From an uncultured Acidimicrobiaceae bacterium (GTDB lineage: Bacteria > Actinomycetota > Acidimicrobiia > Acidimicrobiales > RAAP-2), in NCBI GenBank assembly GCA_963804305.1, contig CAWDPR010000004.1, positions 121,429-185,428 of the forward strand: DNA of 64,000 bases. The letters run 5' to 3'. The notes beneath the pieces were generated by a model that saw only the letters and a list, made by a program, of their open reading frames with translations, ran no database searches and was not told where the DNA came from. The position numbers were made by a program, and so were the translations under genes. This document shows positions 8,318 to 56,134 of this stretch, in pieces. How positions within the stretch are numbered: the first letter of the stretch is position 1; the number at the start of each line of letters is the position of its first letter.

Positions 8318-9262
8318 TCAGGTCGCCTTGAGGACCGCGACGACTCGTCGATTCTGAGCACGACCGGCGGCCGTGGCATTCGTCGAAACGACAACGACGC
8401 TGTAGCTCGGAACGATGGTAATGACGACACCGAGGTCACCGAGTGCGGTCAAGTCGGCGGTCAACTTGGCTTCCACCGCTTTGGCGCGATTCAAGTTGAG
8501 CGTCGTGTTGAACGCGGGCGTAAACACATTGTCGGTGTAGCCCGTCAAATTGACGGAGGTGAAGCGATTCTTCTTGATGGTCAATGCCATCGCCTGCACT
8601 TCCGCCTTCAACTTGGTCGAAAGCGAGAATGAACCTTCAGCGAAAGGAGCGATCGTCACGTTTTGATCCGCGGGCGGTTTGGGTGGCTGCGGCGGTTTCG
8701 ACACGATGTGGACCGGAGGAAGTGTCGTCGTCGTGGTGGTGGTAGTCGTCGTCGTGGTCGTGGTGGTAGTGGTCGTCGAGGTCGTCGTTGGTGGCGGAGG
8801 TGGGGGTGGAGGAGGTGGGGGCAACGTCGTTGTTGTTGTCGTCGTTGTTGTTGTTGTCGTCGTCGTTGTGGTTGTCGTGGTAGTGGTGGTCGTCGTTGTC
8901 GTCGTGGTGGTCGTCGGTGGCGGGCACCAGTTCCACCACCAGAAGGGAGGTCCTGGGGGTCCCTGGTCTCCGTGATCATGTGCGCTCATCACGTCGGGAT
9001 CCCATGGATCACACCGGTCTCGTGTTTGTGTCCCCGTGACGTGTACCGGGGTACGGGTCGTTGCATTGGAGGCGAGGGCCGGCGGGATCACGACGCTGAG
9101 GACGACGGCGGCGACCACGAGGATCACGAGGCGCGCCCGTTGGAGGGCGCGAAGTACCGTGCTCACACAGAATCTCAATGTCGTCGCGAATCGACCTTGC
9201 ATTACGCCTATCCCTAAGGAGGCGACGCGCTTCCTCCGCCCGCTGCCCAAGCTAAAAAACAA
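8318..9262 (-). CDS. OmpA/MotB-like peptidoglycan-binding protein with homopolymeric Thr and Pro tracts
   Basis: The C-terminus LTGYTDNV...LNLNRAKAV...GRAQNRRVVAVL matches the OmpA_C-like signature. Signal-anchor is RARLVILVVAAVVLSVVIPPALA. The true start may be an internal Met (about 9202). It ends 8 bp before the next gene's start. Confidence 0.75.
   Translation of the reverse strand: MFFSLGSGRRKRVASLGIGVMQGRFATTLRFCVSTVLRALQRARLVILVVAAVVLSVVIPPALASNATTRTPVHVTGTQTRDRCDPWDPDVMSAHDHGDQGPPGPPFWWWNWCPPPTTTTTTTTTTTTTTTTTTTTTTTTTTTTTTLPPPPPPPPPPPTTTSTTTTTTTTTTTTTTTTTTLPPVHIVSKPPQPPKPPADQNVTIAPFAEGSFSLSTKLKAEVQAMALTIKKNRFTSVNLTGYTDNVFTPAFNTTLNLNRAKAVEAKLTADLTALGDLGVVITIVPSYSVVVVSTNATAAGRAQNRRVVAVLKAT
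8720..8920 (-). repeat. Low-complexity codon repeats encoding T(27)-L-P(11)-T3-S-T(18)
   Basis: Runs of ACC/ACG/ACA and CCN codons are read directly from the sequence. They also create artefactual poly-V/poly-G ORFs on the opposite strand. Confidence 0.9.
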
Positions 9263-20211: not shown

Positions 20212-21705
20212 CTATCCCAGCCTCGTGAGCACATTGCGCGTGACCTGTTCGATCTGAGGATCGCGCTGCGCGAGGCCGTGTGCCCAATCGGTCGAACCTG
20301 ACGTCACCACCGTGGCGCCCGCGTCATTGCGGTAGGCGCCCAAGACGGCGTGGCCGTGACGGATGCGCTCCATCGCCGCAGGGTCGCGCGTCCCAAAGAC
20401 CCGAGACGCGATGTACTCCAACTCGCTCGGTTCGCCGGGCGCCGGTGGGCGAGGCGCGGTCTCGCGAGTGAAATGTTGCGTCGGGCACGTGCCGAGAATC
20501 TCGAATGTCGCCGGCGTGAGGTCCTCGCCCGTCGGATACGGGAGTCCGTCTCGATAGGTGAACGCGCAGCCGTCGCACTCGTAGCCGACGACGGTCGCGG
20601 AGTTCCCGAGCACGTCCCCATAACCCAGTCCCGTACCGTCAAAGATCCAATGGCCCGCTCGGTGCACGGTGTAGCCGCCTAGACCGGCCGTCACGTTGCG
20701 ACCGATGCGGTGATAGCCGCCGCGCGTGAAGGTCACGCCCGTCATGGTGTTCTCGGGTCGACCCACGAGCACGTCGGACCAGAAGGTCGTCACCTCAGTT
20801 TCGCGCGGCGTCCCCATAAGGGGGTCACTCTTGAAGAACCCCTTGTAGCCCACCATCACGTCGCGGTCATCGCCCTCGATCCGCACCTGCCACAGCGAGG
20901 TGTTCCCCGAGAAGAAGGCCGCGTTGCCGCCTCGCGCGATGAACCCTTCCACGGTGTCGCGCATTGCCTTGGACCAATACTCGTCGTGACCGACGGACAA
21001 GTAGAGGCTCGCCCCGTCGAGAACCTCGGGATGCTCCTCCAAGTCGGCGTTCGTACAGACACCGATCTCGAACCCTTCGCGCTCGGCCCACGCAATGAAG
21101 GGCTGCTCCCAGTCGGGCCATCCAGCAGACCCCGCGTAGCTCGACAGGTGGTTCAGCTGGATGTAGCCCACGTGAGCGGCGTTCTGGGGATCAGGTTCGC
21201 CAGTCCCGGTCACCCGCCGACCCTTCCCCAGGGGCTTGTGCAGATAGCCCGGCGACATGGGACGCCGCATGGACACGTGCGTACCGCCGGTGTAGAGGTT
21301 CGTACCCCCGAAGTCGTTGTAGGCGTTCCACGTGTTCGTCGCCAGGGCGAGGACGATCCGCTCCTTGGACGTGGGTCGAACGACGAAGAAGGCGTACTCT
21401 CGGCGCACCTTGTCGCCGACGTCAATCTCCATCACGACCTCGTAGTAGCCCGAGCGCCAGGACGTGGCGACGTCGAGTTCCGTCGCCACCGGCCACCGGC
21501 AACCCGACGAGGAGGCGTCCGCCGGTACCGGGTGCTCGCCAGTTGGAACCGAAGGCGCACGGTAGACGACGTCGCGATGTCGGCCGACCCGCGCGACCTC
21601 GACGCGTACCGGACGTGATCCTGACGACGACATGTGGAGCCCGACCTTCTCCCCCGGAACGACCGATTGCGGCCAGCAGTACCCGGTGATCGTCTCTCGC
21701 GCCAT
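20212..21705 (-). CDS. N,N-dimethylformamidase beta-subunit-like family protein
   Basis: LALATNTWNAYNDFGGTNLY and HDEYWS motifs are typical of this family. The start was chosen at MARETITGYCWPQS. Confidence 0.7.
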   Translation of the reverse strand: MARETITGYCWPQSVVPGEKVGLHMSSSGSRPVRVEVARVGRHRDVVYRAPSVPTGEHPVPADASSSGCRWPVATELDVATSWRSGYYEVVMEIDVGDKVRREYAFFVVRPTSKERIVLALATNTWNAYNDFGGTNLYTGGTHVSMRRPMSPGYLHKPLGKGRRVTGTGEPDPQNAAHVGYIQLNHLSSYAGSAGWPDWEQPFIAWAEREGFEIGVCTNADLEEHPEVLDGASLYLSVGHDEYWSKAMRDTVEGFIARGGNAAFFSGNTSLWQVRIEGDDRDVMVGYKGFFKSDPLMGTPRETEVTTFWSDVLVGRPENTMTGVTFTRGGYHRIGRNVTAGLGGYTVHRAGHWIFDGTGLGYGDVLGNSATVVGYECDGCAFTYRDGLPYPTGEDLTPATFEILGTCPTQHFTRETAPRPPAPGEPSELEYIASRVFGTRDPAAMERIRHGHAVLGAYRNDAGATVVTSGSTDWAHGLAQRDPQIEQVTRNVLTRLG

Positions 21706-21781
21706 GGTTCGACTGTACCGACACCGCGAGGCGGCCACCAGCAACGGACGAACGGCTGCGATGACGCGAGCCCGACGTCGC

Positions 21782-22785: not shown

Positions 22786-23334
22786 TCAGAAGATGAACGG
22801 CAGGAGCATCTTGGTTCTGCGCTTGTAGGCCGGATAGGCGTCGGGGAACTGCTCGCTCAGGTAGCGCTCCTCGACCGTTGCGCTGTAGATGAAGTAGACG
22901 CCGGCGAGCACCACGGCCAGCAGGCCCGACCAACTCAACGCGACCGCCGTGCCGACGCCCGCCAGCAAGATGCCCGTGTAGATGGGGTGTCGGACGAAGT
23001 GGTACGGACCGCTCGTCACCAGTTCTGGTTCGTCCTTCTGGGACATGGGTACGCCCCAGTTACGTCCGATGTGGAGCCGGGCCCAAATCGCGAAGGACAA
23101 GCCGAGGACGAAGAGGGCGAGACCAAGACCGCCTCGCAAGGGGTCGGCGTTGGCGCCGTTGTGACGAAAGGCTCCCGTTCGAATCAGGACGATCACGGCG
23201 ATGAGGATGACTCCCCTGATCCGCAGTTCGCGCGACCAGGGGACGCGGCTCCTCTTCGTGGAGAAGGCGGCGATGAGCCAGTAGAGCCAAAACGCCGCCC
23301 AACCGATGGCGAAGATGAGTTCAACCGCGTGCAT
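22786..23334 (-). CDS. Isoprenylcysteine carboxyl methyltransferase (ICMT)-family membrane methyltransferase
   Basis: LVTSGPYHFVRHPIYTG...E..L motif plus multiple TM helices. Confidence 0.75.
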   Translation of the reverse strand: MHAVELIFAIGWAAFWLYWLIAAFSTKRSRVPWSRELRIRGVILIAVIVLIRTGAFRHNGANADPLRGGLGLALFVLGLSFAIWARLHIGRNWGVPMSQKDEPELVTSGPYHFVRHPIYTGILLAGVGTAVALSWSGLLAVVLAGVYFIYSATVEERYLSEQFPDAYPAYKRRTKMLLPFIF

Positions 23335-23449: not shown

Positions 23450-23872
23450 TCAGTCGTCCGCGTAGCGAGCAACGGTGAAGGCGATGGTCGTGGGGACGCT
23501 CAGCGTGAAGACCACCAGCATGCAGGTCACGATGAGTAGCGAGGCCCCCCGCGTGTGATCGCGCACGAACGCGAATTCGATCATCGCCGCGGTCACCAGA
23601 TCGGCGAAGATGGCCCACTTGAAGACCTTGAGGAACGTCGTGCGGGAAAAGTTCTTCAGGCTCGCGAGGAGTACTCCCGCGGCGAGAAGCAATAAGGCGC
23701 CCGCCACGAGCAACGCCGCGGCGGCGCCGAGGGGTGCCTTGCGCGGTGCGTACGACGCCATGAGGATCCCCCCGATGATCACCATGGCGAGCGCGCCGGT
23801 ACTGAGCCAGCCAATCGGTGGGAAGGAACGCTCCGCGCTCGCGAGCGCCGGCGCCGTCTCGTCGACACTCAT
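23450..23872 (-). CDS. Hypothetical membrane protein (4 TM)
   Basis: Its ATG overlaps the upstream stop (ATGA at 23869-23872). The longer ORF to 24514 is an out-of-context extension. Confidence 0.55.
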   Translation of the reverse strand: MSVDETAPALASAERSFPPIGWLSTGALAMVIIGGILMASYAPRKAPLGAAAALLVAGALLLLAAGVLLASLKNFSRTTFLKVFKWAIFADLVTAAMIEFAFVRDHTRGASLLIVTCMLVVFTLSVPTTIAFTVARYADD

Positions 23873-24477
23873 TGGGTCGCCACCCGGGTCATGATGACCA
23901 ACGTCGCGACTTGCATCAGACCGGTGATCCCCGCGGTGTAGATGAATCGCTTCATGAGTCGCCCGATGAGTTCGCCGTTGGGCACCGGTTTGTTCATCTC
24001 GAACAGGACGGCGATATTCGCCGGCTCCAGGATGCCCAGTGCGATCACCGCCATCACGCCGACGACGCAGAACGAGGCGATGAGCCACGGGTGATTCGGA
24101 CTCTTCGCGTAGAGGTTCCCCATCTTGCGCGCGATCTGGAAACCGGTCGCCAGGGTCATCATGACCACGGTGGGCATGATGATGACCATCTTGGGCATGA
24201 ATCTCGCCGAGAATTCGGCACGGGCGGGAATGGAGAGCCGGCCCAGTATCGGACCGAGCACGAGGCCGACGAAGAGGTCGATCCCGGTCCACAGTCCGCC
24301 ACCGGCTACGTGACAAAAGACCAACGCCCACTGCCAGTTCCCGGCGATGGACACCGTCACGAAGATCACCGCCGCCGCCGCGATCGGCAGACCCTTCAAC
24401 GGGACGATCTGGATCTTGGCCCGATCGTGGGGTGGTCCCGCCGACCGCGGTGCGACGTCGTTGACGGTATCGGTCAT
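23869..24477 (-). CDS. Hypothetical membrane protein (~6 TM)
   Basis: Hydrophobic profile. It is translationally coupled to the following gene and lies downstream of the ArsR regulator on the same strand. Confidence 0.55.
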   Translation of the reverse strand: MTDTVNDVAPRSAGPPHDRAKIQIVPLKGLPIAAAAVIFVTVSIAGNWQWALVFCHVAGGGLWTGIDLFVGLVLGPILGRLSIPARAEFSARFMPKMVIIMPTVVMMTLATGFQIARKMGNLYAKSPNHPWLIASFCVVGVMAVIALGILEPANIAVLFEMNKPVPNGELIGRLMKRFIYTAGITGLMQVATLVIMTRVATQ

Positions 24478-24614
24478 GATCGCCCCCGAGCAACTGGTAC
24501 CTGAACGTTGCCAATGTATCCGATGGTCTGTCCCACCGCTACTACTCGTGGCCGTTCACGCGGGGATCCACACGACGCCGCCACCTTGATCGTCGCTTCG
24601 TGCGCGGCGGGTGG

Positions 24615-24944
24615 TTACGAGTCCTCGAGTTCCTCGAGGAGGGCGCGCGTATCGATGAGTGAGGACGTCAAGATCTTGCGCGCGACGTCGAGGAGTTCAA
24701 AGATCATGGGATTGGCGACCGAGTACACGACGCTCGTGCCGACTTTTCGGGTCTGAACCAGGTTGGCCCGGCGCAAGACCGCCAACTGCTGAGAGAGATG
24801 CGACGCCTCGAGGCCAACCTCGGGCACGAGGTCGCCCACCGAGCGCTCGCCCTCTCGCAACACCTCGAGGACTCGAATGCGAGCCGGGTGACCGAGGGTC
24901 TTGAAGAGCTCGGCTTTGATCTGATAAATGGGCGTGTTGGTCAT
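24615..24944 (-). CDS. ArsR/SmtB family transcriptional regulator lacking the CxC metal-site motif
   Basis: LFKTLGHPARIRVLEVL..GERSVGDL is a winged HTH, with ERSVGDL where metal sensors carry ELCVCDL. SD GAGAGG lies 8 nt before ATG 24944; an alternative start is 24959. Confidence 0.85.
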   Translation of the reverse strand: MTNTPIYQIKAELFKTLGHPARIRVLEVLREGERSVGDLVPEVGLEASHLSQQLAVLRRANLVQTRKVGTSVVYSVANPMIFELLDVARKILTSSLIDTRALLEELEDS

Positions 24945-24962
24945 TGACGTGCCTCTCATGGT

Positions 24963-26303
24963 CTACAGGTCATTGCCCGCGTAGGACAGGTTGAAACTCT
25001 TGTTCACGAGCGGGAAGTCGGGGACGATCGTGTCGGCGAGCGACACCGCGAGCGCGGGCCAATTGAAGAAGGACGGATCCACGACTTTGACGCGCGTCAC
25101 CACGCCGTCTTCGACCTCGACGCGATGGACAATCGCCCCGCGCCAACCTTCGACGATCCCCGATCCCGAGCCAGAACGGGCCGACACGCAACCTTCGATC
25201 GATTCGTCAAGATTGCCCGGTCGAGTGCAGAAGTCGCGCAGGAGGCGCAGCGACGTGGCGACCTCGTCGACGCGCACGTCGAAACGCGCATTGACGTCCC
25301 CTTCGCTGGACGTCGAGGGAGCGAAGCCCGCCATCTCGACGTTCGCGGGATGCGCCACTCGAGCGTCGTAGTTCGAACCCGACGCGCGCGCGGCCACGCC
25401 GAGCACGCCCATCTCCTCGGCGTCACCGGCGCGGAGTACTCCGGTCCCGAGGAATCGGTCCATCACGGTGCCTTGGCCCCGAGCGAGAGCCACGAGTTCG
25501 TCGAACTGGACCGCGATGGCGTCGAGTTCACGTGCGTCGGGCATCACGATCACCTGGGCACCTCCGACCTTCACTCCTCCGCGTAACAGGCGATGCCCGC
25601 TCACCGCGCGATTGAGTCGCAGAAGTCGCTCGCGAAGTGTGAGTGCCCTCGCCTGGGCCAATCCGAAGCCCACATCATTGCAGAGCGATCCGATGTCCGC
25701 GACGTGGTTGTAGAGGCGTTCTAACTCCACGAGCACGACGCGCAACTCCTCGGTCCTCGCCGACACCGTGACGTCGAGCGCCTCTTCCAGTGCGCGCGCG
25801 AAGGCCAAGGAGTGGCCCACGGCGCTGTCGCCGGATATCTTTTCCGCGAGCTCGACCCCCCATTGGAGGTCACGACCTTCAAAAAGGCGCTCGATCCCCT
25901 TGTGCACGAACCACAATCGCGCCTTCATCTTCAAGATCGTCTCGCCGACCACCGAAAAGCGGAAGTGGCCCGGTTCGATGAGACCGGCGTGGACGGGTCC
26001 GACGGGGATCTCGTAGACACCGAGACCCTGTACTTCGACGAACGGGTACGACGCGGTGTCCTCGCTCATCGACATGGACGTCGGTGCATCGCGTCGCATG
26101 GGGTGCCAATCATCGGGCCAGTGTTGGTGCAGGACGAGGCGATGAGGTGACGGATGTCCGATCGGCTCGACCCCGAAGACGTCGCGCATCTCTCGTTCGA
26201 AGCGGCCGGCGGGGAACGAAAGCGTCGCCAGCGAAGGCACGCGCGGCCGCTCCGCGTCAGTGGTCGCGACGAGTTCGATACGTCGGTCGGGAGGTCCCGT
26301 CAC
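24963..26303 (-). CDS. NuoC-NuoD/HycE-like 'large subunit' of an Ehr-type complex. It has no [NiFe] Cys ligands, and its N-terminal NuoC-like part is interrupted by a frame disruption (see finding at 26365-26380).
   Basis: IPVGPVHAGLIEPGHFRF ... FVHKGIERL. The L1 position reads KISGDSAVGH (25812-25841) instead of CGxCxxxH. The C-terminus reads SFNLSYAGNDL instead of DPCxxCxDR. The upstream 26304-26484 region encodes the missing NuoC-like N-terminus in another frame. Confidence 0.85.
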   Translation of the reverse strand: MTGPPDRRIELVATTDAERPRVPSLATLSFPAGRFEREMRDVFGVEPIGHPSPHRLVLHQHWPDDWHPMRRDAPTSMSMSEDTASYPFVEVQGLGVYEIPVGPVHAGLIEPGHFRFSVVGETILKMKARLWFVHKGIERLFEGRDLQWGVELAEKISGDSAVGHSLAFARALEEALDVTVSARTEELRVVLVELERLYNHVADIGSLCNDVGFGLAQARALTLRERLLRLNRAVSGHRLLRGGVKVGGAQVIVMPDARELDAIAVQFDELVALARGQGTVMDRFLGTGVLRAGDAEEMGVLGVAARASGSNYDARVAHPANVEMAGFAPSTSSEGDVNARFDVRVDEVATSLRLLRDFCTRPGNLDESIEGCVSARSGSGSGIVEGWRGAIVHRVEVEDGVVTRVKVVDPSFFNWPALAVSLADTIVPDFPLVNKSFNLSYAGNDL

Positions 26304-26480
26304 GAAGAGATAGACGACTCGGATCGTCGCACCGTCGTCGACCGCACTGATCAGGGCGAGGCGGTAGCCACGGGTCGAGCAACGTCGAGGCCAGCACCTT
26401 GAGTTCGGACTCGGCGACCGGTACCACCGCTCGCAAGCGACCGGGGCGCGCGAGTAGTTCCGTGACGGTGTCGATGGCGC

Positions 26481-27935
26481 TCACAGTGCCACCACGTGCG
26501 CCGCCGCGTGCAACAGCGAGCCGAGCGGCCACACCGAGACGCCGATGAAGGCGCACGCCACCAGTGCGCCGATCAAGGGCACCGCGACCAACGCGGGGGT
26601 CATGGCCGGGGTCTCGTCCCCATTGGGACCGAAGAGCATCGCTCGACCGTGCGACATCATCGCTCCGAAGATCACGGCCATGCAGACGAGTGACAGCCCG
26701 GCCGCCCAGCCGAGACCGACGCGAAATTCAGCGCGCAGCATGTTGAGCTCGCTCACGAAGAGACTGAACGGCGGCAGGCCTAACAACGCCACCAGGCCAA
26801 AGGCGAAGATGCCCCCCACGACGGGACGGCGACTGAGCAAGGCGCGAATGTCCTTGATCTCGCTCGAACCCTCGCCCAACACGATCTCTCCCGACGCGAG
26901 AAAGAGCACGCCCTTGGCAATGCCGTGGCCGAGGATGTGCAGGAGGACGGCGGCGATCGCCAACGTCGAGCCGGCGGCCGCTCCGAGCGCGATCAGTCCC
27001 ATGTGTTCGACGCTGCTGTAGGCGAGCATCCGTTTGTAGTCGCGCTGACTCAGCAGGAGCGAAGAGGCGACGACGAGTGAGAGCAGCGCGACGATGACCA
27101 GGAGTGTTCGGGCGAACTCCGGTCCGAGCGCACCATCGGCGATCACCTTGAAACGCAGGATCGCGTAGAAGGCGACGGTGAGCAGGACCCCGGACATCAG
27201 CGCCGAGACGGGAGCGGGCGCCTGACTGTGCGCGTCGGGCAGCCAACTGTGCATTGGTGCCAGGCCGACCTTGGTCCCGAAACCCAGCACGATCAACGCG
27301 AAGGCGAGACGCATGACGCCCGGGTCGAGTCGATGTGATTGGGCCACCAGTGACGTCCAGTCCAATGCCGCGCTCCCGTGACCCGTGGCGTGCAACGCCG
27401 CCAGGTACACGAGGACGGTCCCGAGGAACGCGAGCGCGATGCCCACCGAGCAGATGACGATGTACTTCCACGACGCTTCCAATGACCCGCGCGTACTGCG
27501 GTGTCCGACGAGGAATGTCGTCACGACGGTGGTCGCCTCGATGGCCACCCACATGACGCCCAGGTTCGCGGCGAGCACCGCGAGCAGCATGGTCGCGAGG
27601 AAACCCTGTATCAACACCGCGTAGAGCGACGCGTGTCGACGGGTGCAACGCCTCGCCGCAATCTCGGCCTCGAGGTAGCGCACGCCCTGCAAGGTCGCGA
27701 GGAGGGCGATGGCGCCGATCACGATGACCATGAACGCACTGAGGGCATCGGCGCGCAGGAGGCCAGTGTCGGTGACGGCGGCGTGTGCGTGAACCACGTG
27801 GATGGCGAGGACGATGCCGGCCACCACCACGAGCAACGCCGACACGGCGCCAGCCCATCCGATCGACGTTCGCCACGGCGTCAACGAAGAAATCGCGGCG
27901 CACAGTACCGGTACGAGGAGAATGAACCACAACAT
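26481..27935 (-). CDS. NuoN/NuoM/HyfF-like proton-translocating antiporter-type subunit
   Basis: About 14 TM helices with WLPDAHSQAPAPVSALMSGVL and MLAYSSVEHMG motifs. The start MLWFILL overlaps the upstream stop (TGATG). Confidence 0.88.
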   Translation of the reverse strand: MLWFILLVPVLCAAISSLTPWRTSIGWAGAVSALLVVVAGIVLAIHVVHAHAAVTDTGLLRADALSAFMVIVIGAIALLATLQGVRYLEAEIAARRCTRRHASLYAVLIQGFLATMLLAVLAANLGVMWVAIEATTVVTTFLVGHRSTRGSLEASWKYIVICSVGIALAFLGTVLVYLAALHATGHGSAALDWTSLVAQSHRLDPGVMRLAFALIVLGFGTKVGLAPMHSWLPDAHSQAPAPVSALMSGVLLTVAFYAILRFKVIADGALGPEFARTLLVIVALLSLVVASSLLLSQRDYKRMLAYSSVEHMGLIALGAAAGSTLAIAAVLLHILGHGIAKGVLFLASGEIVLGEGSSEIKDIRALLSRRPVVGGIFAFGLVALLGLPPFSLFVSELNMLRAEFRVGLGWAAGLSLVCMAVIFGAMMSHGRAMLFGPNGDETPAMTPALVAVPLIGALVACAFIGVSVWPLGSLLHAAAHVVAL

Positions 27936-28594
27936 CAGTCGTGCAGCTCCGAAAGTTGATCGAGGTCGAGTGAACCCAGACGAAGCCGCATCTGCGTGGC
28001 GAGCACCTGGAGGACCACGACGATCAGCAGCACGTCGAGCGACGCCCCCAGCTCCACGATGAGCGGGACCCCCGCGGTCGCGAGGAACGCCACGAGCGCG
28101 ATGCCGTTGTCGACGAGAAGCAGGCCCACGATCTGGGACACCGCCTTTCGCCGCGTCGCCAGGGCGAAGAAGCCGATCAGCATCGCCGCCATCCCGTAGG
28201 GGATGAACGGGCCGGTCGAGCTCGACGCCAACGCCGTCACCGATCGCGACGCGGCGACGGCGAGGAAGATCAAGACGCCGGCCGCCACCAAGGAGGCGGG
28301 CACGTTCACGAGCGGTTGCGTCTCGCGACTCGAGGCGTCGTGACGCACCACTCTCGTGATCAACGTCGGCACGACCACGCCCTTGGCGACGAGTACCAAC
28401 ACCGCGACCACGATCAGACCGCTGTCGTGTCCGTGCACCCCGAGCGTGAGCGCCACGAGCGCGAGGGCGATGCCCTGTACGGCGAGCGCACGAACGATGG
28501 CGAGCAGAGACCGGCGCCAAAGCGTGACGACGGCGCACAGCACGACGACGGCGCAGCCGAGCCCGAGGGCGCTGATGAACGTGGAGTGGTTCAC
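27935..28594 (-). CDS. HyfE/HycP-like small membrane subunit (NuoK-related)
   Basis: A 219-aa polytopic protein. GTG start 28594 overlaps the upstream stop (GTGA). Its position matches hyfE/hycP in hyf-type operons. Confidence 0.75.
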   Translation of the reverse strand: MNHSTFISALGLGCAVVVLCAVVTLWRRSLLAIVRALAVQGIALALVALTLGVHGHDSGLIVVAVLVLVAKGVVVPTLITRVVRHDASSRETQPLVNVPASLVAAGVLIFLAVAASRSVTALASSSTGPFIPYGMAAMLIGFFALATRRKAVSQIVGLLLVDNGIALVAFLATAGVPLIVELGASLDVLLIVVVLQVLATQMRLRLGSLDLDQLSELHD

Positions 28595-29550
28595 TTGGCC
28601 ACCACACCGCTCACGACACCGAGCAGGGCCAGGACGAAGGCACCGGCCAAGAGTTCGGGGAGCCGGAACAGTCGAACCTTGGCGATGAAGACTTCGACGA
28701 AGGCGATGGCGCTCGCGACGAAGGCGAGTTTGGCGCACAGCACGACGGTCGAGAGGACGAGAGCCGCGCTCGAGTTCGACGTCGCGATGCCCCATGGCAG
28801 TATCAGATTGACGAACACGCCCAGCAAGAGGGCCAGGCGCATCGCTTCGCCGAGCGTCACGAGGGCGAGGTCGGGCCCCGAGTATTCGAGGACCATCGCT
28901 TCGTGGATCATCGTGAGCTCGAGGTGCGACGCGGGGTTGTCCACCGGGAGCCGTCCACTCTCGGCGATGATCACGATGAGGAGTGCCGCGACCGCGAAGA
29001 GGCGCGCTGGCGAGATGATCACGCCGGGGTGGGCCAGTGTCGCGCGGATGATCACCGGGAAGTTCGACGAGTGCGCCGAGATCGAAAGGGCGAGGATTGT
29101 CACCAGCAGCGCCGGTTCGGCCAGCGCGCCGATCGTCACCGCCCGGCTCGAACCCATGCCGCCGAAGGCGGTGCCGGTGTCGAGCCCCGCGAGCGCGAGA
29201 AGTGTGGAACCGAGCAGCAGGAGGTAGACCACGACGAAGAGGTCCGACCCGGTAGCGAACGCGGGCCGCGAAGCGACGAGCGGCGTCATGACCGACGCCA
29301 CGGTGACGGTCGCGACGAGCACCACCGGAGCGAGAGGAAAGATCCACGACACGAACTGTGGACGTAGTCGCTCTTTTCGCATGAGCTTGCGGAGGTCGCG
29401 CAGTGGCTGAAGGATCGGCGCGCCGACGCGACCTTCGATGATGGCGCGGACCTTGCGCATGAGACCGAGCAGGACGAGACCGCCCGCCGCGACGATCACC
29501 ACTTGCAGGGCCGCGACCCCCGCGAGACCAACGTCGTGCAAGAGCCTCAT
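28591..29550 (-). CDS. NuoH/HycD-like membrane subunit
   Basis: RVGAPILQPLRDL.KL..KE and E.E....EY motifs of the NuoH/HycD family. ATG 29550 overlaps the upstream stop (ATGA). Confidence 0.85.
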   Translation of the reverse strand: MRLLHDVGLAGVAALQVVIVAAGGLVLLGLMRKVRAIIEGRVGAPILQPLRDLRKLMRKERLRPQFVSWIFPLAPVVLVATVTVASVMTPLVASRPAFATGSDLFVVVYLLLLGSTLLALAGLDTGTAFGGMGSSRAVTIGALAEPALLVTILALSISAHSSNFPVIIRATLAHPGVIISPARLFAVAALLIVIIAESGRLPVDNPASHLELTMIHEAMVLEYSGPDLALVTLGEAMRLALLLGVFVNLILPWGIATSNSSAALVLSTVVLCAKLAFVASAIAFVEVFIAKVRLFRLPELLAGAFVLALLGVVSGVVAK

Positions 29551-31568
29551 CCGATCACCGCGATGACGACCAGGGTGACGACGAGTGCGAACAGGCCGTA
29601 CGCCAGGTATCGGTGCACGCTGCCCGGTTGGAGGCGACGGGCGAACTGACCCCAACGGCGGACCGCTCGGATCACCGGGTCGTAGAGCGCGTGCTCCACC
29701 CGGTCATCGACGTGGCTCCGATAGGACATCGCCTCGACGACGAAGCGAGACTCGGCGGCGTGGCTGACGTCGAGGTCGTGCACCGGACGCAGCACGTCGT
29801 CAAAGACGCGTTGCACCGGTTCGGCGAACGAGGTCGCGGTGTACTGCATCCTCGCGGTCACCAATTCACGACCACTTCCCCACGCCTCGGTGACTCGGAC
29901 GCCGCGACGACGCGCCAGTACTCCTCGTAGTGTCACGACCAGGACGATGGCGAGTACCAGGCACGCCGCCAACACGGTGGGCGCGAGCACGGCGTGGACG
30001 TGCACCAACTGGAGCTGGAGACCGTGGGTCACCGGCGCGGAACCAACGCGTGGCAATGACGTTCGCACGGCGCGTTCGACTGCGGGCAGGATCGTCATCG
30101 GCGCAACGCCCCCCACGACACACATCAGGACGAGTAGGCCCAGTCCGGTGCGCATGCTCGGCGCGACCTCGCGGGCGTCGTCCGCTCCGTCAGATCGCGG
30201 ACGTCCCAAGAAGCCGATCCCCGCCGCCTTCACGAACGCGACAATCGTGAGCCCGGCCGTCAGGGCGAGCGCGGCGATCGCGACGGGAATGGCGATGTCA
30301 CCGACGGTGCTGCCCAGGGCGACTCCGTGCAGGAGACTCTGGAACAGGAGCCACTCCCCGACAAAACCATTCAGCGGCGGCAACGCGCAGATCGATGCCG
30401 CCGCAACGAGGAAGAGGGCGCCCGTCTGGGGCATACGCCGCAGGAGGCCCCCGAGCTCATTGAGGTCGCGCGTCCCCGTCGCCGCTTGCACCGAACCGGC
30501 CGCGAGGAAGAGCGCGCCCTTGAAGAGTGCGTGATTGATGAGGATGAAGAGCGCCGCCACGAGACTCAACGCCCCGAGACGTCCGTGACCGGTCGCCGTG
30601 AACAGCCCCGAGGCCCCGAGCGCGAGGAGGACGAGGCCGATGTTGTCGGTCGTGGAGTACGCCAGCAGTCGTTTGAGATCCGTGCTGTTCGCCGCGTACA
30701 GGGAGCCGTAGAGTGCCGACACGGCACCGAGCGTGAGGACGACCAGCCACCACCACACGGGTCCGCCACCCAACAAGACATTGCCGAACAGGACGATGCC
30801 GTAAACCCCGAGTGCGACCATCGCTCCGGACATCAGCGCCGACACGGGACTCGGCGCTTCGGGGTGTGCTCTCGGCAGCCAGACGTGGAACGGGACGACC
30901 CCCGCCTTCGAGCCGAACCCGACGAGCGCGAGCAGGAAGATCACTGCGCGCGAACCTGGCGAGAGTCCTCGCGTGTGCGCCTCGAGGGCCGCGAAGGTCT
31001 GAGAGCCGGAGTGGTTCGCGAGCACGAGGAACGCCGCCAGGATGAAGGCCGCACCGACGTGCGTGATGACGCCGTACCAGACGCCCGCGCTGCGAGCTGC
31101 CTCTCGGCGAGCCTGATCGGTGAGCACGAGGATGAGCGAAGTGAGCGCCATCAACTCCCAAAGGAACATGAAGGTCGCGACGCTGGCGGCCGCGGGAACG
31201 AGGAGCAGCGCCGTCACGAACATCGCGTAGCCGCTCGCCGTCAATCGTGCGGACATCGCGTGACGCGAATAGCCGACCCAATAGAGCGTCGCCGGCATCG
31301 CTACCAGCGCCACGAGTACGACGAAGAGAGCGCCCAGGGGACTGAGCGCCAACGTGGCGCCAGTCAACGGGAGCACCTCAATCGAATGCCACGACGCGTC
31401 GTGTCCGGTCGTCAGCACACCGATCGCCGCTGACAACTCGATCGCGCACGCAGCGATGACGAGTGACGCCGTCACGGGCACTCGCCAGCGCGGTGCGAGC
31501 GCCGCACCTGCCGCGGCCGCAGCGAGCCCCACGAGGGTCCCCGCTACCAAGAGGAGTCCCGTGGTCAA
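29547..31568 (-). CDS. NuoL/HyfB-like proton-translocating antiporter-type subunit
   Basis: A 673-aa protein with about 16 TM helices and WLPRAHPEAPSPVSALMSGAMV and LLAYSTTDNIG motifs. The TTG start overlaps the nuoB-like stop (TTGA). Confidence 0.88.
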   Translation of the reverse strand: MTTGLLLVAGTLVGLAAAAAGAALAPRWRVPVTASLVIAACAIELSAAIGVLTTGHDASWHSIEVLPLTGATLALSPLGALFVVLVALVAMPATLYWVGYSRHAMSARLTASGYAMFVTALLLVPAAASVATFMFLWELMALTSLILVLTDQARREAARSAGVWYGVITHVGAAFILAAFLVLANHSGSQTFAALEAHTRGLSPGSRAVIFLLALVGFGSKAGVVPFHVWLPRAHPEAPSPVSALMSGAMVALGVYGIVLFGNVLLGGGPVWWWLVVLTLGAVSALYGSLYAANSTDLKRLLAYSTTDNIGLVLLALGASGLFTATGHGRLGALSLVAALFILINHALFKGALFLAAGSVQAATGTRDLNELGGLLRRMPQTGALFLVAAASICALPPLNGFVGEWLLFQSLLHGVALGSTVGDIAIPVAIAALALTAGLTIVAFVKAAGIGFLGRPRSDGADDAREVAPSMRTGLGLLVLMCVVGGVAPMTILPAVERAVRTSLPRVGSAPVTHGLQLQLVHVHAVLAPTVLAACLVLAIVLVVTLRGVLARRRGVRVTEAWGSGRELVTARMQYTATSFAEPVQRVFDDVLRPVHDLDVSHAAESRFVVEAMSYRSHVDDRVEHALYDPVIRAVRRWGQFARRLQPGSVHRYLAYGLFALVVTLVVIAVIG

Positions 31569-32053
31569 CGGCGGGTCAATCCGCGAAGTGCTTCGATGAT
31601 GATCGTGGGGTCGGGTGGACAGCCCGGGATGGTGACGTCGACGTCGATGACCTCATCGACGGATCCGATCACCCCGTAACCGCCCCGAAAGACGCCGCAG
31701 TCGCGGGCGCAGTCGCCGAGCGCGATGACGACGCGGGGATGAGGCATCGCTTCGAGCGTCTTTCGCAACGGCCCGACCATGTTGTGCGTGACGGGTCCGG
31801 TCACCACGAGCCCGTCAGCGTGACGTGGTGACGCGACGAGCCGAGTGCCGAATCGCTCCGCGTCGTAGACCGGCCCGAAGGCCGAAGTGATCTCCAGTTC
31901 GCATCCGTTGCACGATCCGGCGTCGACGTGACGCAGTTGCAACGAACCCACGAACGCACTCGGTCCCGCGACCGCGCCAAGGTCGACGCTCAGTGGTTCG
32001 GTGACTCGGCGGGCACCGCGCACGGCCCGCCAGGCACTCGCGAAGGAGATCAC
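31565..32053 (-). CDS. NuoB/HycG-like small subunit with a conserved 4Fe-4S (N2-type) Cys set
   Basis: Cys contexts are GSCNGCE, ALGDCA and IPGCPP. It has a GTG start and is the first gene of the operon. Confidence 0.88.
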   Translation of the reverse strand: MISFASAWRAVRGARRVTEPLSVDLGAVAGPSAFVGSLQLRHVDAGSCNGCELEITSAFGPVYDAERFGTRLVASPRHADGLVVTGPVTHNMVGPLRKTLEAMPHPRVVIALGDCARDCGVFRGGYGVIGSVDEVIDVDVTIPGCPPDPTIIIEALRGLTRR

Positions 32054-32091
32054 CGACTGTGGGCGATCATCGGCGTATACCTGTCAATATC

Positions 32092-32101
32092 ATAATATTA
32101 T
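32092..32101. promoter_or_regulatory. Perfect AT-only palindrome ATAATATTAT within an AT-rich putative promoter of the Ehr-type operon
   Basis: It sits in the stretch TATACCTGTCAATATCATAATATTATCATTATGTCATACT (32076-32115), 40-60 bp upstream of the nuoB-like start. This is the only strongly AT-rich block for several kb. Confidence 0.4.
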
Positions 32102-32172
32102 CATTATGTCATACTCACGGGTTCCGGTGTCCGACTCGTGCGGTAGCAATCCATAGACGGGTATGCAGGTCG

Positions 32173-32583
32173 TTAGATGACGCCGGCGCCGAAACGGCGG
32201 CCGCTGATTCGTTCAATCTTGATCTTCACCACGGCACCGGCGATATCGGTGACCCCCGACCGAGCACCCAGCACGCTGAGAAGCTGATCGACCACCGCTG
32301 GCTCAGTGGTAGCAGAGGCGATTCCCTGCACCAAAACGCTCCAACCGGAATGGCCGTCGGGCTGATACGAATCGACCTCGAAGGCCACAACGTGATTCGA
32401 TGTCGCGGCCCGCAACTTCGTTCCAGGGCTCGTCTGGAACACGACAAAGCCATCAACCACCGCGAAGTTGACGGGCAGGATAACGGGCAGCGACCCGACG
32501 GTAATGCCGACGCGTCCGACCGGTTCGTTGGCGAGAAGCGTCAAGCATTCTGATTCATCCAACTCGGCCAGTGGTTCAGACAT
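32173..32583 (-). CDS. Pyridoxamine 5'-phosphate oxidase family (possibly F420/FMN-binding) protein
   Basis: L.ESEC..LL....VGR.G......P.ILPVNF.VVDG.VVF.T..G.KL. Confidence 0.75.
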   Translation of the reverse strand: MSEPLAELDESECLTLLANEPVGRVGITVGSLPVILPVNFAVVDGFVVFQTSPGTKLRAATSNHVVAFEVDSYQPDGHSGWSVLVQGIASATTEPAVVDQLLSVLGARSGVTDIAGAVVKIKIERISGRRFGAGVI

Positions 32584-32700
32584 CGAAAGACCTTTGTCGA
32601 AATCTCGATTTCGCCGCTAGGGCCAAAGGTCCCATTTGACGTGCTCGAAGCCTCGTCACTCACCTTTGCAGGTCGGGGATGGTCGAGGCAGTTCGATCGA

Positions 32701-33312
32701 TTAGTGCGGTATGGCCACGACCTTGGGCACGCCGACCCTATCGTCCAGCGCCCCGCCGCACGTCCGGACCAGCAACACCGCACATCCCACGTTGGAGATC
32801 GTCTCGGCGGAGAAGAGCACGTGCAATACCCCCACAATGCTGAGCAGCGCGGCAAGACTTCCGAGCACCTGCACCCAGAGCACGGCCCGAGCCCAGGAGA
32901 CGTCGGCTAATTGACGAAAAAGCCAATACGCAGCGACACTCATGAACACGACGAGCACGGCACCAAAGCCGTAGTGGATGTATTTCAACACCGCGTCCAG
33001 TGAGTAAAAGTAAGTACTCACCAGCACGAAGAACGTGACGGCGCTGTAGGTCAAGAGCAGTTTGCGTACCTTCTCGGAGCGAACGCCACCGCCGCCGCAC
33101 GCTCGTGCGGCACGCATGTTCGCGCACGCGAGCACTACCCAAGCGATGGTATAGAGCACAGCCGTCTTTACGTGGACGCCGTACTCGCTGATGCCGCCTT
33201 CATGTCGAGCGAGCACGTATCCCGGATGAAGCGCGACGCTCACCCCCATGAAGAAGAGAAACGCAACTTCTCCAAATACGACCCATTGCACTGCACGCAG
33301 CCTGCTATTCAC
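32701..33312 (-). CDS. Hypothetical integral membrane protein (6 TM; possibly DUF998-like)
   Basis: Hydrophobic profile, with visibly lower G+C than the neighbours. Confidence 0.5.
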   Translation of the reverse strand: MNSRLRAVQWVVFGEVAFLFFMGVSVALHPGYVLARHEGGISEYGVHVKTAVLYTIAWVVLACANMRAARACGGGGVRSEKVRKLLLTYSAVTFFVLVSTYFYSLDAVLKYIHYGFGAVLVVFMSVAAYWLFRQLADVSWARAVLWVQVLGSLAALLSIVGVLHVLFSAETISNVGCAVLLVRTCGGALDDRVGVPKVVAIPH

Positions 33313-33419
33313 ATTTGCTCATCAGCTACCTCAACGCTAACGGCTGTCACGCTGACTCACGCAAGGTCCTCGAAGTCGTCATCCGGCTGTTACACGCCCT
33401 CGACTAGGAACTTCAATCG

Positions 33420-33767
33420 TCAGAGTGCCAGATGGAGGCGCAGCGCCTCGTCGAGTGCGGCCATTAATCCTTGAGGGACTTCTCCGATTGTGGATCCAAG
33501 TCGTTCAACGGATATGGAACGGACCTGTTCTGCCTGAGCCTTGGAGTCGTGCGCCAGTCCGGTCGCGTTCGCTGGAAGAATTACTTGGAAGGGATAGACC
33601 CGAGAGATGTTCGAGGTCATTGGCACAACGGTGATGACGCCGTGGCCAGTTCGCTCCGCAGCAACGTTCGCACCGTCGTTGCTGACAATGACTGCGGGCC
33701 GTCGTTTGTTGGCCTCTCCGCTCTTCGCAGGCTCAAGATCGACGAGGTGAATCTCCCCTCGGTGCAC
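33420..33767 (-). CDS. Type II toxin, PemK/MazF family endoribonuclease
   Basis: RGEIHLVDLEP..G.E..KRRPAVIVSND ... VVPMTSN... matches the MazF/PemK signature. GTG start 33767 overlaps the antitoxin stop (TAGTG). Confidence 0.85.
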   Translation of the reverse strand: MHRGEIHLVDLEPAKSGEANKRRPAVIVSNDGANVAAERTGHGVITVVPMTSNISRVYPFQVILPANATGLAHDSKAQAEQVRSISVERLGSTIGEVPQGLMAALDEALRLHLAL

Positions 33768-33982
33768 TACTTCAAACCATCTGATGCAGTCGTATCCCAA
33801 AGTTGTTGGTCGTCGTCTCGCCACTCGGCCCAAGCACTTTCGTACGCGCTAGCTAAGCCCGTCGCTCTGAGCAGTCGGACAGCCCTATGAAGTGCGGCCG
33901 AGCGAGATGGCAGCCCTTTCTCGCTGGCGTACGCGTCGAGGAAGTTAACGTCCTCTTCCGGCAAACTCATACTTACTTTCAT
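33767..33982 (-). CDS. Type II antitoxin, ribbon-helix-helix (CopG/MazE-like)
   Basis: MKVSMSLPEEDVNFLDAYA.EKGLPSRSAALHRAVRLL is an RHH fold motif. It lies immediately upstream of the toxin. Confidence 0.8.
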   Translation of the reverse strand: MKVSMSLPEEDVNFLDAYASEKGLPSRSAALHRAVRLLRATGLASAYESAWAEWRDDDQQLWDTTASDGLK

Positions 33983-33987
33983 ACTTT

Positions 33988-34005
33988 GATACTACCGAGA
34001 GTATC
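33988..34005. promoter_or_regulatory. Inverted repeat GATACT-N6-AGTATC upstream of the antitoxin (candidate autoregulatory operator)
   Basis: Perfect 6-bp arms. Further AGTAT(G) copies overlap the first codons of the antitoxin. Confidence 0.4.
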
Positions 34006-44497: not shown

Positions 44498-44749
44498 ATG
44501 AGTACAGAGTGGATGGCAGATGGTAAGTGCCGCGAATACCCAGCGGGGACGTTCTTCCCGCGCGACGGGGTCGGGGTCATCATCGCCCAACGCATCTGTG
44601 CCACGTGCCCGGTCGCCAGTCAGTGCTTGGAGTACGCCCTCGAGAACCACGTCGATCACGGGATCTGGGGTGGCTGCAGCGAGCGCGAACGACGTCGCAT
44701 CCTTCGCGAGCGCCGTCGCCGTCGCATCTTCAATTCCGACGCTTCGTAA
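44498..44749 (+). CDS. WhiB family Fe-S transcriptional regulator
   Basis: C-x(n)-C-x2-C-x5-C is present as GKCREYP...CATCPVASQC. It also has GIWGG followed by a basic tail. An alternative GTG start lies at 44492. Confidence 0.9.
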   Translation: MSTEWMADGKCREYPAGTFFPRDGVGVIIAQRICATCPVASQCLEYALENHVDHGIWGGCSERERRRILRERRRRRIFNSDAS

Positions 44750-44760
44750 CTTCACCTCGC

Positions 44761-45576
44761 GTGTTCGAGTGTGTCATCAACCTTTCCGAGGGGCGCGACG
44801 CGTCGCGAGTGGACGCCCTTGGGGCGACGGCCGGGCCGTCACTTCGCGACCTTCACGCCGATCGTTTCCATAACCGCAGCGTCTTCACACTCATCAACGC
44901 AGCCAACGAACTCACGCGTGACGTCCACGCTCTCGTGGGAGCGGCGTTCACGACCCTCGACCTCACGCGACACGAAGGTGTCCATCCCCGTTTCGGCGTC
45001 GTCGACGTCGTCCCGTTCGTCGCGCTGGCGCCAGGGGACGCCGAAGAAGCCGTGGCGCTTCGCGATGAAACCGCGTCGTGGATCGCCGACACCTTCAACG
45101 TCCCGGTCTTCCTCTACGGACCGGTCGACGGCGCACTACGAACGCTGCCCGAGCTGAGGAAGTCGGCGTTTCGGACCCTCGCACCCGACAAGGGCCCCCA
45201 GCGCGCGAGCGCCACGCTGGGCGCCAGCGCGCTCGGCGCGCGCGGGCTGCTCGTCGCCTGGAACCTGTGGTTGCGAGGCGTCACGCTCGACGAGGCACGA
45301 GGGATCGCCCGAGCGGTCCGGCGCCCTGAAGTTCGTGCCCTGGCCTTCGCGGTCGGCGACGAGGTCCAGGTCAGTTGCAATCTGATCGCGCCACTTGAGG
45401 TTGGGCCGTCGGTCGTCTTCGACCAGGTCGCCTCATTGCTGCGCGGCGCTGGCGCGATCGATCATGCCGAACTCGTCGGACTGGCACCATGGGCGCTCTT
45501 GAAAAGGGAGAGCCCCGAACGGTGGTCCCAGTTGGACCTCAGCCCTGAACGGACGATTGAGAGTCGGCTCGGCTGA
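44761..45576 (+). CDS. Glutamate formimidoyltransferase (FtcD N-terminal domain type)
   Basis: VFECVINLSEGRD...HNRSVFT...HEGVHPRFGVVDVVPFV. The start is GTG 44761; the longer ORF from 44527 overlaps whiB in another frame. Confidence 0.8.
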   Translation: MFECVINLSEGRDASRVDALGATAGPSLRDLHADRFHNRSVFTLINAANELTRDVHALVGAAFTTLDLTRHEGVHPRFGVVDVVPFVALAPGDAEEAVALRDETASWIADTFNVPVFLYGPVDGALRTLPELRKSAFRTLAPDKGPQRASATLGASALGARGLLVAWNLWLRGVTLDEARGIARAVRRPEVRALAFAVGDEVQVSCNLIAPLEVGPSVVFDQVASLLRGAGAIDHAELVGLAPWALLKRESPERWSQLDLSPERTIESRLG

Positions 45577-53681: not shown

Positions 53682-53690
53682 GTTGCTGTT

Positions 53691-55220: not shown

Positions 55221-56134
55221 TGGGCCCTCCTTCGCACGCCCGCGAGCGCCTCGAGTACCAACAGCGCCGCGAGGCGGACCGTTCGTTGGTCATCGGTGTC
55301 GCGTTCGACGTCGATCTCGGTGAAATCGATGGCGCAGACCGCGTGTTGCACGGCTACTTCGCGAACGAAGCGGCGCATCTCGTCGGCGCTCAGTCCTCCG
55401 GGTGCCGCGGCGGGACACGCCGGTACGACCGATCGATCCGCGGCGTCCATGTCGATGTCGACGTAGACCCGCCGGCCCCCGGAACCGGCCAGCGCCACGG
55501 CGCGCCTCGCCGCCTCCTCCACCGATTCGTGTCGAAGAACGTCACGCGAGATCACGGTGACGCCGGCGTCATGGGCGCGCTGCGCGTACACCGCCGAGTT
55601 GGAGAAATCGGCCAGCCCCACCTGGACCACGTGATGGCCGTCCAGACCGTCGTCGAGGAGTTGACGGACCGGTGATCCGTTCGAGACGCCGTCGCGCATG
55701 TCAAGGTGGGCGTCGAGTGTGACGAGCCCAAAGTTCGAATAGTCGCCTCGAGCGAGTGCGCGTAACGAATGCCAGGTGGCGGCGTTGTCACCACCCAAGA
55801 TGAGACGAAGCGCCACCTCGGGAGCCCAACGCTCCAGAGCTTGCGCCACCCGTTCGCCGCCGCCAACGCCATCGGGGTCGTCCACGTCGCCGTAGTCAAC
55901 GAGGGCGACGTGCTCAGCGATGTCGAGGGCGTCGGTGAACGACCACGTCGAGTAGCGCTCCAACGCTCGTCGCACGGCCTCGGGCGTACTCGTCCTCGAA
56001 CGCGGTGACACTGACGTGGCAAAGGTCGAGACACCCAAAAGTCCGACGTTGCGCTTCGCGTCGACTGGTTGGCTCGCGAGCACCGTGGCGGCCGAGAGCC
56101 AGTTGGGATCGTCGCTGTAGGCCACGGTGCCCAT
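55211..56134 (-). CDS. Arginase/ureohydrolase-family protein, probable formimidoylglutamase
   Basis: Metal-ligand motifs are LDAHLDMRD, GGDN and DIDMDAAD. It is the first gene of the hut cluster and overlaps hutH by 10 bp. Confidence 0.75.
   Translation of the reverse strand: MGTVAYSDDPNWLSAATVLASQPVDAKRNVGLLGVSTFATSVSPRSRTSTPEAVRRALERYSTWSFTDALDIAEHVALVDYGDVDDPDGVGGGERVAQALERWAPEVALRLILGGDNAATWHSLRALARGDYSNFGLVTLDAHLDMRDGVSNGSPVRQLLDDGLDGHHVVQVGLADFSNSAVYAQRAHDAGVTVISRDVLRHESVEEAARRAVALAGSGGRRVYVDIDMDAADRSVVPACPAAAPGGLSADEMRRFVREVAVQHAVCAIDFTEIDVERDTDDQRTVRLAALLVLEALAGVRRRAQWP

Follow-up and report, generated by a model that had tools for sequence, protein, structure and literature searches.

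An Ehr-type complex-I/hydrogenase-like operon with a replaced [NiFe] site in an uncultured Acidimicrobiaceae bacterium

What can a membrane complex built like a group-4 hydrogenase do when its catalytic subunit has no [NiFe] site? The question is raised by a six-gene operon on contig CAWDPR010000004.1 (GenBank assembly GCA_963804305.1) of an uncultured Acidimicrobiaceae bacterium, from which we analyzed positions 121,429 to 185,428, a stretch of 64,000 nucleotides (nt) called here the window (ca. 64% G+C; nearest protein relatives in Acidimicrobiales metagenome-assembled genomes (MAGs)). The operon occupies 24963-32053 on the minus strand and encodes, in this order, NuoB/HycG-, HyfB-, HyfC/NuoH-, HyfE-, HyfF- and NuoC-NuoD/HycE-like subunits. 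The Pfam domains found along it (PF01058, PF00361, PF00146, a weak PF00420, PF00361, and PF00329 with PF00346 and a short, weak PF00374) agree with the gene order and domain content of an initial annotation of this DNA, which had proposed an energy-converting hydrogenase-related (Ehr) complex. This identity stands: a HycE-like large subunit without the NiFe site is encoded together with complex-I/Hyf-like subunits. Judged by its genes, the locus is a member of the known Ehr family, of the Mycobacterium tuberculosis Rv0081-Rv0087 type, and no new kind of system.

Group-4 [NiFe] hydrogenases carry two cysteine motifs in the large subunit, L1 (RxCGxCxxxH) and L2 (DPCxxCxx(H/R)), and neither is present here. 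The L1 site, at 25812-25841, translates as KISGDSAVGH, and the L2 site, at 24966-24995, as FNLSYAGNDL followed by a TAG stop. When the protein is aligned residue by residue with Escherichia coli HycE (7z0s_E, E=2.7e-52), CGICGFAH is matched by SGDSAVGH and DPCYSC by NLSYAG; as can be seen, the four NiFe Cys positions hold Ser, Ser, Ser and Gly, as had been read from the translation alone. The whole subunit has three cysteines, none of them in either motif. Its terminal NDL aligns with CTDR of HycE and ends short of the HycE C-terminal tail, in line with the earlier statement that there is no maturation extension. The ligands of the complex-I quinone are absent as well, His38 and Tyr87 of Thermus thermophilus Nqo4 being aligned with Ile169 and Gly218. 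No curated model fits the subunit: the best NCBIfam model is NuoD, with 139 bits against a cut-off of 360. A fold search with an AlphaFold2 monomer returned HycE as the best match in the PDB (to April 2026; template modelling (TM) score 0.78, 26% identity); the monomer served for this search only, with a predicted local distance difference test (pLDDT) value below 50 in the pocket segments, residues 144-196 and 471-506.

The initial annotation had itself named a misaligned register, with cysteines present elsewhere, as one finding that would overturn it. In that case the operon could encode formate hydrogenlyase (FHL) or another true group-4 [NiFe] hydrogenase, a label often given to the M. 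tuberculosis locus, as would be suggested here by source annotations of the type "Ni,Fe-hydrogenase III large subunit", by the weak PF00374 match and by HycE being the closest solved relative. We compared the large subunit with those of 80 related loci drawn from a species-representative genome collection. Motifs of the types SGD[ST]xxxH and NKSFN[LQ]SY[AS]GNDL-stop were found at the two sites in 78 loci, from Actinomycetota to archaea, and among homologues of 62-80% identity both were invariant, together with a hydrogenase-type loop, IPVGPxHAGxIEPGHFRF. Only two loci, L066 and L068, have CG(V)C...H and ELCYxCTDR, in register with the replacement motifs; since their NiFe cysteines fall into the same columns, the alignment register is validated. 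In addition, a Pfam scan of the ca. 55 open reading frames (ORFs) of the 64-kb window revealed no Hyp, HycI or HycF gene, no molybdopterin formate dehydrogenase (FDH) and no 2x[4Fe-4S] protein, in agreement with what had been reported before. Judging from these residues, the large subunit cannot be a [NiFe] hydrogenase, and a true hydrogenase or formate hydrogenlyase can in effect be ruled out. Since the replacement motifs are near-invariant in 78 of 80 loci, their conservation indicates that the pocket is rebuilt under strong purifying selection and not decayed.

The two exceptional loci come from MAGs of Chloroflexota and Gemmatimonadales, at ca. 41% identity. Both have the complete set of NiFe cysteines and CTDR as the last residues of the protein, and a crude neighbor-joining (NJ) tree places them among the Ehr lineages without these cysteines. 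The placement is a hint that the cysteines were lost more than once or that a hydrogenase sister group stands very near to Ehr.

The small subunit has retained its cluster ligands. The motifs GSCNGCE, GDCA and GCPP, pointed out initially, align with those of MbhJ and HycG, the nearest solved relatives (E=3e-33 and 2e-32, respectively), and in 28 relatives the conservation of the [4Fe-4S] ligands C48, C51, C115 and C145 is 95% or higher, so that all four cysteines that hold the proximal cluster in group-4 hydrogenases are present. Conservation was counted over 28-44 relatives, with a threshold of at least 95%, and by this count charged and histidine residues are retained throughout the membrane arm. 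In the HyfB-like subunit (HycC, 7z0s_C, E=2e-68; NCBIfam HyfB, 577 bits against a cut-off of 667, over residues 7-670) these are E138, K221, H228, H235, K299, H346, K350 and E405, and in the HyfF-like subunit (NCBIfam HyfF, 387 bits against 543) E133, K222, H229, K301, H333, H337, K341 and E396. The NuoH-like subunit has a conserved acidic/His cluster (E145, E197, R200, D204, H209, E211, H216, E217 and E222), and E181 and D187 are conserved in the HyfE-like subunit, which matches the NCBIfam model "hydrogenase 4 membrane subunit" (E=6.5e-21, 75 bits against 136). The conserved Glu, Lys and His residues, among them those of the TM5 Glu, TM7 Lys and TM12 Glu types, match the chains of the complex I antiporter-like and E-channel subunits, the position-by-position mapping having been checked against HycC only.

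Is the large-subunit gene intact? It had been described as one NuoC-NuoD/HycE-like ORF, and in the window it is not; a frameshift was overlooked. The frame opened by GTG 26484 stops at 26257, and the main 446-aa ORF, 24963-26303, lies in another frame, that of the preceding gene. The homologues, 505-506 aa long, align without a break once one C is dropped from GACCCGTGG. What the depositor called as the gene is P0017, a fragment of 368 aa that starts at an internal Met. Exact-sequence look-ups of P0017 and of the NuoH-like protein retrieved no contig. The 90% cluster of P0017 includes, however, a 506-aa protein, P0121, identical to the frame-corrected translation, and through it an intact twin was reached: P0121 is encoded intact on contig L081 (JGI sample 3300044796), which is 99.756% identical to the window over 18,029 bp and differs from it by 42 substitutions and two single-base gaps, at 26374 and at 24595 (intergenic). 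The insertion is thus 1 nt at 26374, where L081 reads CTCGA-TCGTGGC and the window CTCGACCCGTGGC. Programmed frameshifting was considered and rejected, since L081 encodes the protein in a single frame.

The cytochrome bc1 genes qcrC and qcrA of the window (minus strand, 57737-59570) are likewise frameshifted: for QcrC, the C-terminal membrane helix is encoded in another frame (ca. 58700-58790), and for QcrA, the QcrA_N (PF19297) and Rieske (PF00355) domains do not share a frame, the junction being near 58108. Because the L081 gene is intact and qcrC and qcrA are broken in the same manner, the insertion at 26374 is quite probably an assembly error, and the large-subunit gene is intact in a near-identical population, as P0121 on L081 shows. 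If the insertion were real, the operon would be a recently inactivated pseudogene cluster in the source organism. The insertion does stand in the deposited sequence, from which the depositor called the truncated P0017; its site is no long homopolymer (T in L081, CC in the window), and the 42 differences in 18 kb are genuine single-nucleotide polymorphisms (SNPs). We nevertheless hold such inactivation to be unlikely, since all other genes of the operon keep their frames and overlaps, a 99.76%-identical contig carries the gene intact and the frameshifts in qcrC and qcrA point to errors of the assembly consensus. A UvrD-type helicase ORF at 60949-62523 (minus strand), with a Pfam match over ca. 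45 residues only and Ser/Arg/Thr-rich, apparently out-of-frame flanks, may contain further frameshifts.

The overlapping start and stop codons noted at all five junctions of the operon (TTGA, ATGA, GTGA, TGATG and GTGA) are each found where they had been placed, and an independent gene call (by JGI) on L081 reproduces four of the five overlaps; the NuoH-like gene was called identically there. What does not stand is the continuity of the large-subunit frame after GTG 26484, and the TTG start of the HyfB-like gene is ambiguous: the JGI call on L081 starts 12 codons downstream of it, whereas TTG is favored by the match to the HyfB profile, which sets in at residue 7 of the protein translated from it.

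Comparison of complete loci separates two arrangements. Ca. 40 complete loci have the order B-L-H-E-F-CD, with the small-subunit gene first; their hosts include Acidimicrobiia, Streptomyces, Nonomuraea, Mycobacterium, Rokubacteria/Methylomirabilota, Chloroflexota and Acidobacteriota, and the Actinomycetota/Rokubacteria-type loci form one clade in the NJ tree. Five mycobacterial loci (L013, L017, L018, L021 and L022) have the order ArsR-B-L-H-E-F-CD and large subunits 54-57% identical to that of the window. In distant loci (37-43% identity), from Nitrospirota, archaea, Acetobacterium and others, the genes run L-H-E-F-CD-B, with, in several cases, a 2x[4Fe-4S] module separating CD from B. Within 10 kb of the B-first (Actinomycetota/Rokubacteria-type) loci, the window included, no ORF was found to carry two CxxCxxCxxxCP motifs. 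In five of the distant Ehr loci (L052, L053, L057, L065 and L075) a 2x[4Fe-4S] (HycF/NuoI-like) and a NuoB-like subunit are apparently joined in one ORF of 262-354 aa.

When all ORFs flanking the related loci were clustered without bias, the sole conserved neighbor was an ArsR-family gene, present in 36 loci; no conserved dehydrogenase, ferredoxin or maturation gene emerged from this clustering. In most cases the ArsR gene directly precedes the operon on the same strand; in others it is downstream, or there is one on either side. In the window it is downstream and starts 3-18 nt after the large-subunit stop; its product has no cysteine at all, so the earlier description of a regulator without metal-site cysteines is borne out. 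The best solved relative of this protein is M. tuberculosis Rv0081 (6JMI; E=5e-32, residues 8-112). The Rv0081 operator was reportedly defined by He et al. in 2011. An imperfect palindrome with 16-nt arms, 75% complementary, is located at 32082-32111, occurs once in the window (0 expected by chance) and is shared only with the same-species contig L081, being absent upstream of the closest relatives. Because Rv0081 binds an inverted repeat within its own promoter and acts as a repressor of its own operon (bioRxiv 10.1101/465575; PMC6177252), it is plausible that this 30-bp element is an ArsR operator.

With the parts listed, we lean towards a working module over a relic. Conserved cofactor ligands and pocket residues suggest redox-coupled ion translocation in which an Fe-S cluster reduced by a soluble carrier would be coupled through the rebuilt pocket to the membrane arm; any specific donor or acceptor is proposed with less confidence. 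The single cluster would be reduced directly by a soluble low-potential carrier, for example a ferredoxin or a flavoprotein like the adjacent FDOR. A change of charge or protonation at the pocket, at the interface of the large, small and NuoH-like subunits, would drive, or be driven by, the passage of H+ or Na+ across the pair of antiporter-like subunits, in the manner of complex I, Mbh and FHL. Menaquinone would be the obvious candidate for the acceptor. ArsR probably represses the operon via the AT-rich upstream palindrome.

Several observations weigh against this proposal. Complex-I-style quinone reduction is not supported, since the equivalents of Nqo4 His38 and Tyr87 are missing (Ile169 and Gly218), and without a NuoI-like subunit the usual path of electron entry is missing too. 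The pocket segments are just where the AlphaFold monomer cannot be relied on, and each mechanistic step past cofactor and residue conservation is one that we infer. The frameshift means that the genome could carry a dead copy of the large-subunit gene, and the FDOR gene accompanies the operon in few loci only. Near the operon, a consensus scan found no σ70-like promoter (and, for terminators, nothing useful), and a DosR-box search found no site, its one match in the window being distant and fewer than chance predicts.

Could the complex instead transport ions without redox chemistry? The two large membrane subunits are strong relatives of MrpA and MrpD (7qru_A, E=1e-42; 6z16_A, E=4e-40), and the operon could specify an Mrp-like cation/proton antiporter in which the NiFe-less cap is structural or regulatory and the Fe-S cluster is a sensor of O2, NO or redox state that gates transport instead of passing electrons in catalysis. 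Such a role would agree with the absence of both quinone and NiFe ligands, of any electron-input subunit (NuoI, NuoEFG, FDH) and of a conserved partner gene, and with the place of the M. tuberculosis locus in a hypoxia-responsive network. Yet the four Fe-S ligands and the hydrogenase-type EPGHFR loop with its Glu are conserved, as a redox-coupled site would be, and the Mrp subunits B, C, E, F and G were not identified: no Pfam or NCBIfam match names the small membrane subunit of the operon MrpC, E, F or G, and it is HyfE-like instead. Moreover, every characterized relative with such a cap that we know of (complex I, Mbh, MBS and FHL) is redox-driven. We consider such an antiporter the main rival to the redox-coupled module, though an improbable one.

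A more far-reaching version of the redox-coupled module is doubtful at present. The B-first, ArsR-linked, NuoI-less group, with hosts in Actinomycetota, Methylomirabilota/Rokubacteria, Chloroflexota and Acidobacteriota, might be a distinct minimal six-subunit redox-driven ion pump that sustains the membrane potential in hypoxia; its single cluster would be reduced directly by a soluble carrier such as ferredoxin or an FDOR flavoprotein, and the former NiFe pocket would bind a hard metal ion, menaquinone or another substrate through the invariant oxygen donors Ser217, Asp219, Ser/Thr220, Asn498, Ser500, Asn504 and Asp505 and the retained Glu170 and His224.

The features of the locus and its surroundings are collected in Table 1.

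Table 1. Features of the Ehr locus, in window coordinates.
Feature	Position	Strand	Remarks
Small subunit, NuoB/HycG/MbhJ-like, 162 aa	31565..32053	-	PF01058, E=5e-29
HyfB/HycC/NuoL-like antiporter-type subunit	29547..31568	-	673 aa from TTG 31568 or 661 aa from GTG 31532; PF00361, E=5e-54
HyfC/HycD/NuoH-like subunit, 319 aa	28591..29550	-	PF00146, E=3e-37; ATGA overlap with preceding gene
HyfE-like small membrane subunit, 219 aa, NuoK-like C-terminal half	27935..28594	-	NCBIfam and weak PF00420
HyfF/NuoN-like antiporter-type subunit, 484 aa	26481..27935	-	PF00361, E=2.5e-53
Large subunit, NuoC-NuoD/HycE-like fusion, 506 aa if intact	24963..26484	-	Frame split 26375-26484 / 24963-26373
Rv0081-type ArsR/SmtB regulator, 114 aa, or 109 aa from ATG 24944	24615..24959	-	PF01022
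PF12900 (PNPOx/FDOR-like) flavoprotein gene	32173..32583	-	PF12900, E=1.2e-25; possible accessory gene
AT-rich 30-bp near-palindrome TGACATAATGATAATATTATGATATTGACA, candidate operator/promoter region	32082..32111	-	In 119-bp gap upstream of first gene

Other neighbors were examined as possible parts of the system. The two membrane ORFs downstream of ArsR (23869-24477 and 23450-23872), which have no family match, as stated earlier, had been included in the feature by the initial annotation, which started it at 23450. They are absent from all other related loci and are not conserved parts; together with a PEMT/ICMT gene (22786-23334), they have a counterpart only on the same-species contig L081. 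These downstream genes (M202, M140 and PEMT) and a 203-aa membrane gene upstream were accordingly rejected as operon parts, no homologue being present in the comparison set. The PF12900/FDOR gene was rejected as a conserved partner: it is near only L039 and L008 and, weakly, L009, and M. persicum has serB/ctaD upstream instead. In M. tuberculosis, Rv0080, which adjoins Rv0081, is described as an FDOR (PMC13284343).

Further observations concern the rest of the window. A MazF/PemK-type toxin gene (PF02452; 33420-33833, minus strand) is located just upstream of the Ehr region in a patch of 58% G+C within a lower-GC stretch (32000-34000), with a RadC gene nearby on L081; the patch may be a small mobile or addiction-module insertion. 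An N,N-dimethylformamidase beta-subunit-like gene (PF20254, E=1.6e-73; 20212-21744, minus strand), ca. 1 kb past PEMT, is found on L081 as well. A histidine-utilization set unrelated to Ehr (44527-45576 and 52026-56134) includes urocanase, histidine ammonia-lyase and an arginase-family (formimidoylglutamase-like) gene, with a formiminotransferase N-domain gene further upstream. Finally, a 100-aa ORF at 8637-8939 (minus strand) with high third-position G+C, extremely rich in His, Asp and Asn (HHDDNDDHHYHDNHNDDDNNNN...), could encode a metal-binding peptide or be spurious.

Few members of the complex-I/hydrogenase superfamily that have no assigned reaction are as widespread as the Ehr complexes. 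To know their donor, acceptor and ion would bear both on the evolution of complex I from hydrogenases and on how aerobic Actinomycetota hold their membrane potential when oxygen runs out; the M. tuberculosis locus is part of a hypoxia-responsive network (PMC6728331). The present comparison sharpens the target: the actinobacterial type has six subunits, a single Fe-S cluster, no NuoI-like subunit and an invariant pocket motif, a dedicated Rv0081-type regulator recurs across several phyla, and the B-first type occurs in genera with cultivated, tractable members (Streptomyces, Nonomuraea and Mycobacterium). We regard these comparative points (an architecture without NuoI, replacement motifs that are invariant and an ArsR linkage that spans phyla) as useful but incremental.

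The name Ehr goes back, according to a quotation in PMC8691401, to Geobacter sulfurreducens GSU0739-0745 ("Ech-hydrogenase-related"), and it was generalized to "energy-converting hydrogenase-related complexes" by Marreiros et al. in 2013, as citing papers have it. Papers from 2019-2023 still state the function as unknown (PMC10284858, PMC10432482), in agreement with the initial annotation. In a full-text search of the literature we came upon no structural or biochemical work on any Ehr complex, and the PDB to April 2026 holds no solved one, the nearest structure being HycE.

How does the window's complex relate to the systems that are understood? Complex I has a homologous NuoB-NuoD-NuoH adaptor and antiporter-like subunits, and its NuoD, too, is without a NiFe site. 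It differs in having NuoI, NuoEFG, more than the two antiporter-like subunits seen here, tandem cysteines in NuoB where the small subunit of the window has the hydrogenase-type CxxC, and the quinone ligands Tyr87 and His38 (T. thermophilus numbering) where the window has Gly and Ile. Mbh and MBS (Mbx) of Pyrococcus furiosus are put together on the same modular plan; among solved proteins MbhJ matches the small subunit best, and MBS sets the precedent that a group-4 relative can have a different chemistry, although MbsL matches the large subunit only distantly (6u8y_L, E=2e-9). Unlike the window's complex, both contain a NuoI-like subunit (MbhN/MbsN) and Mrp-type small subunits.

Among solved structures, those of E. 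coli FHL (Hyc, 7Z0S) are the nearest to the large, small and NuoL-like subunits, HycE being likewise a NuoC-NuoD fusion, and the membrane subunits are best named after HyfB, HyfE and HyfF of hydrogenase-4. In contrast to Hyc and Hyf, the window's complex has no NiFe ligands, C-terminal maturation peptide, HycF/HyfH, HycB, FdhF or nearby hyp/hycI genes, and every NCBIfam score of its subunits is below the equivalog cut-off.

Within the Ehr family, the locus shares with the loci of G. sulfurreducens and of Marreiros et al. a NiFe-less group-4/NuoD-type large subunit and co-encoded NuoB-, NuoH-, HyfE- and Mrp/Nuo antiporter-like subunits. It differs from the distant Ehr loci, which have the L-H-E-F-CD-B order and in several cases the 2x[4Fe-4S] module, whereas the group of the window is small-subunit-first, module-less and ArsR-linked. 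The closest parallel is M. tuberculosis Rv0081-Rv0087, which is called an EHR complex and no functional hydrogenase, of undetermined function (PMC6728331). The initial annotation had suggested that the gene order mirrors this locus, and this is correct for the subunits and for the identity of the regulator but not for its position, ArsR being at the 3′ end of the operon here and at the 5′ end there; the host is of the Acidimicrobiales type and not Mycobacterium, and no DosR box was found near the window operon. Otherwise the likeness is close: the six subunit types follow one another in the same order, as in the five mycobacterial loci, whose large subunits carry the SGD[ST]xxxH and NKSFNLSYAGNDL motifs; the ArsR protein is a close homologue of Rv0081, which likewise has no cysteines or metal site; and a PNPOx/FDOR-type gene adjoins the locus as Rv0080 does in M. 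tuberculosis, the likeness here being one of family and position only.

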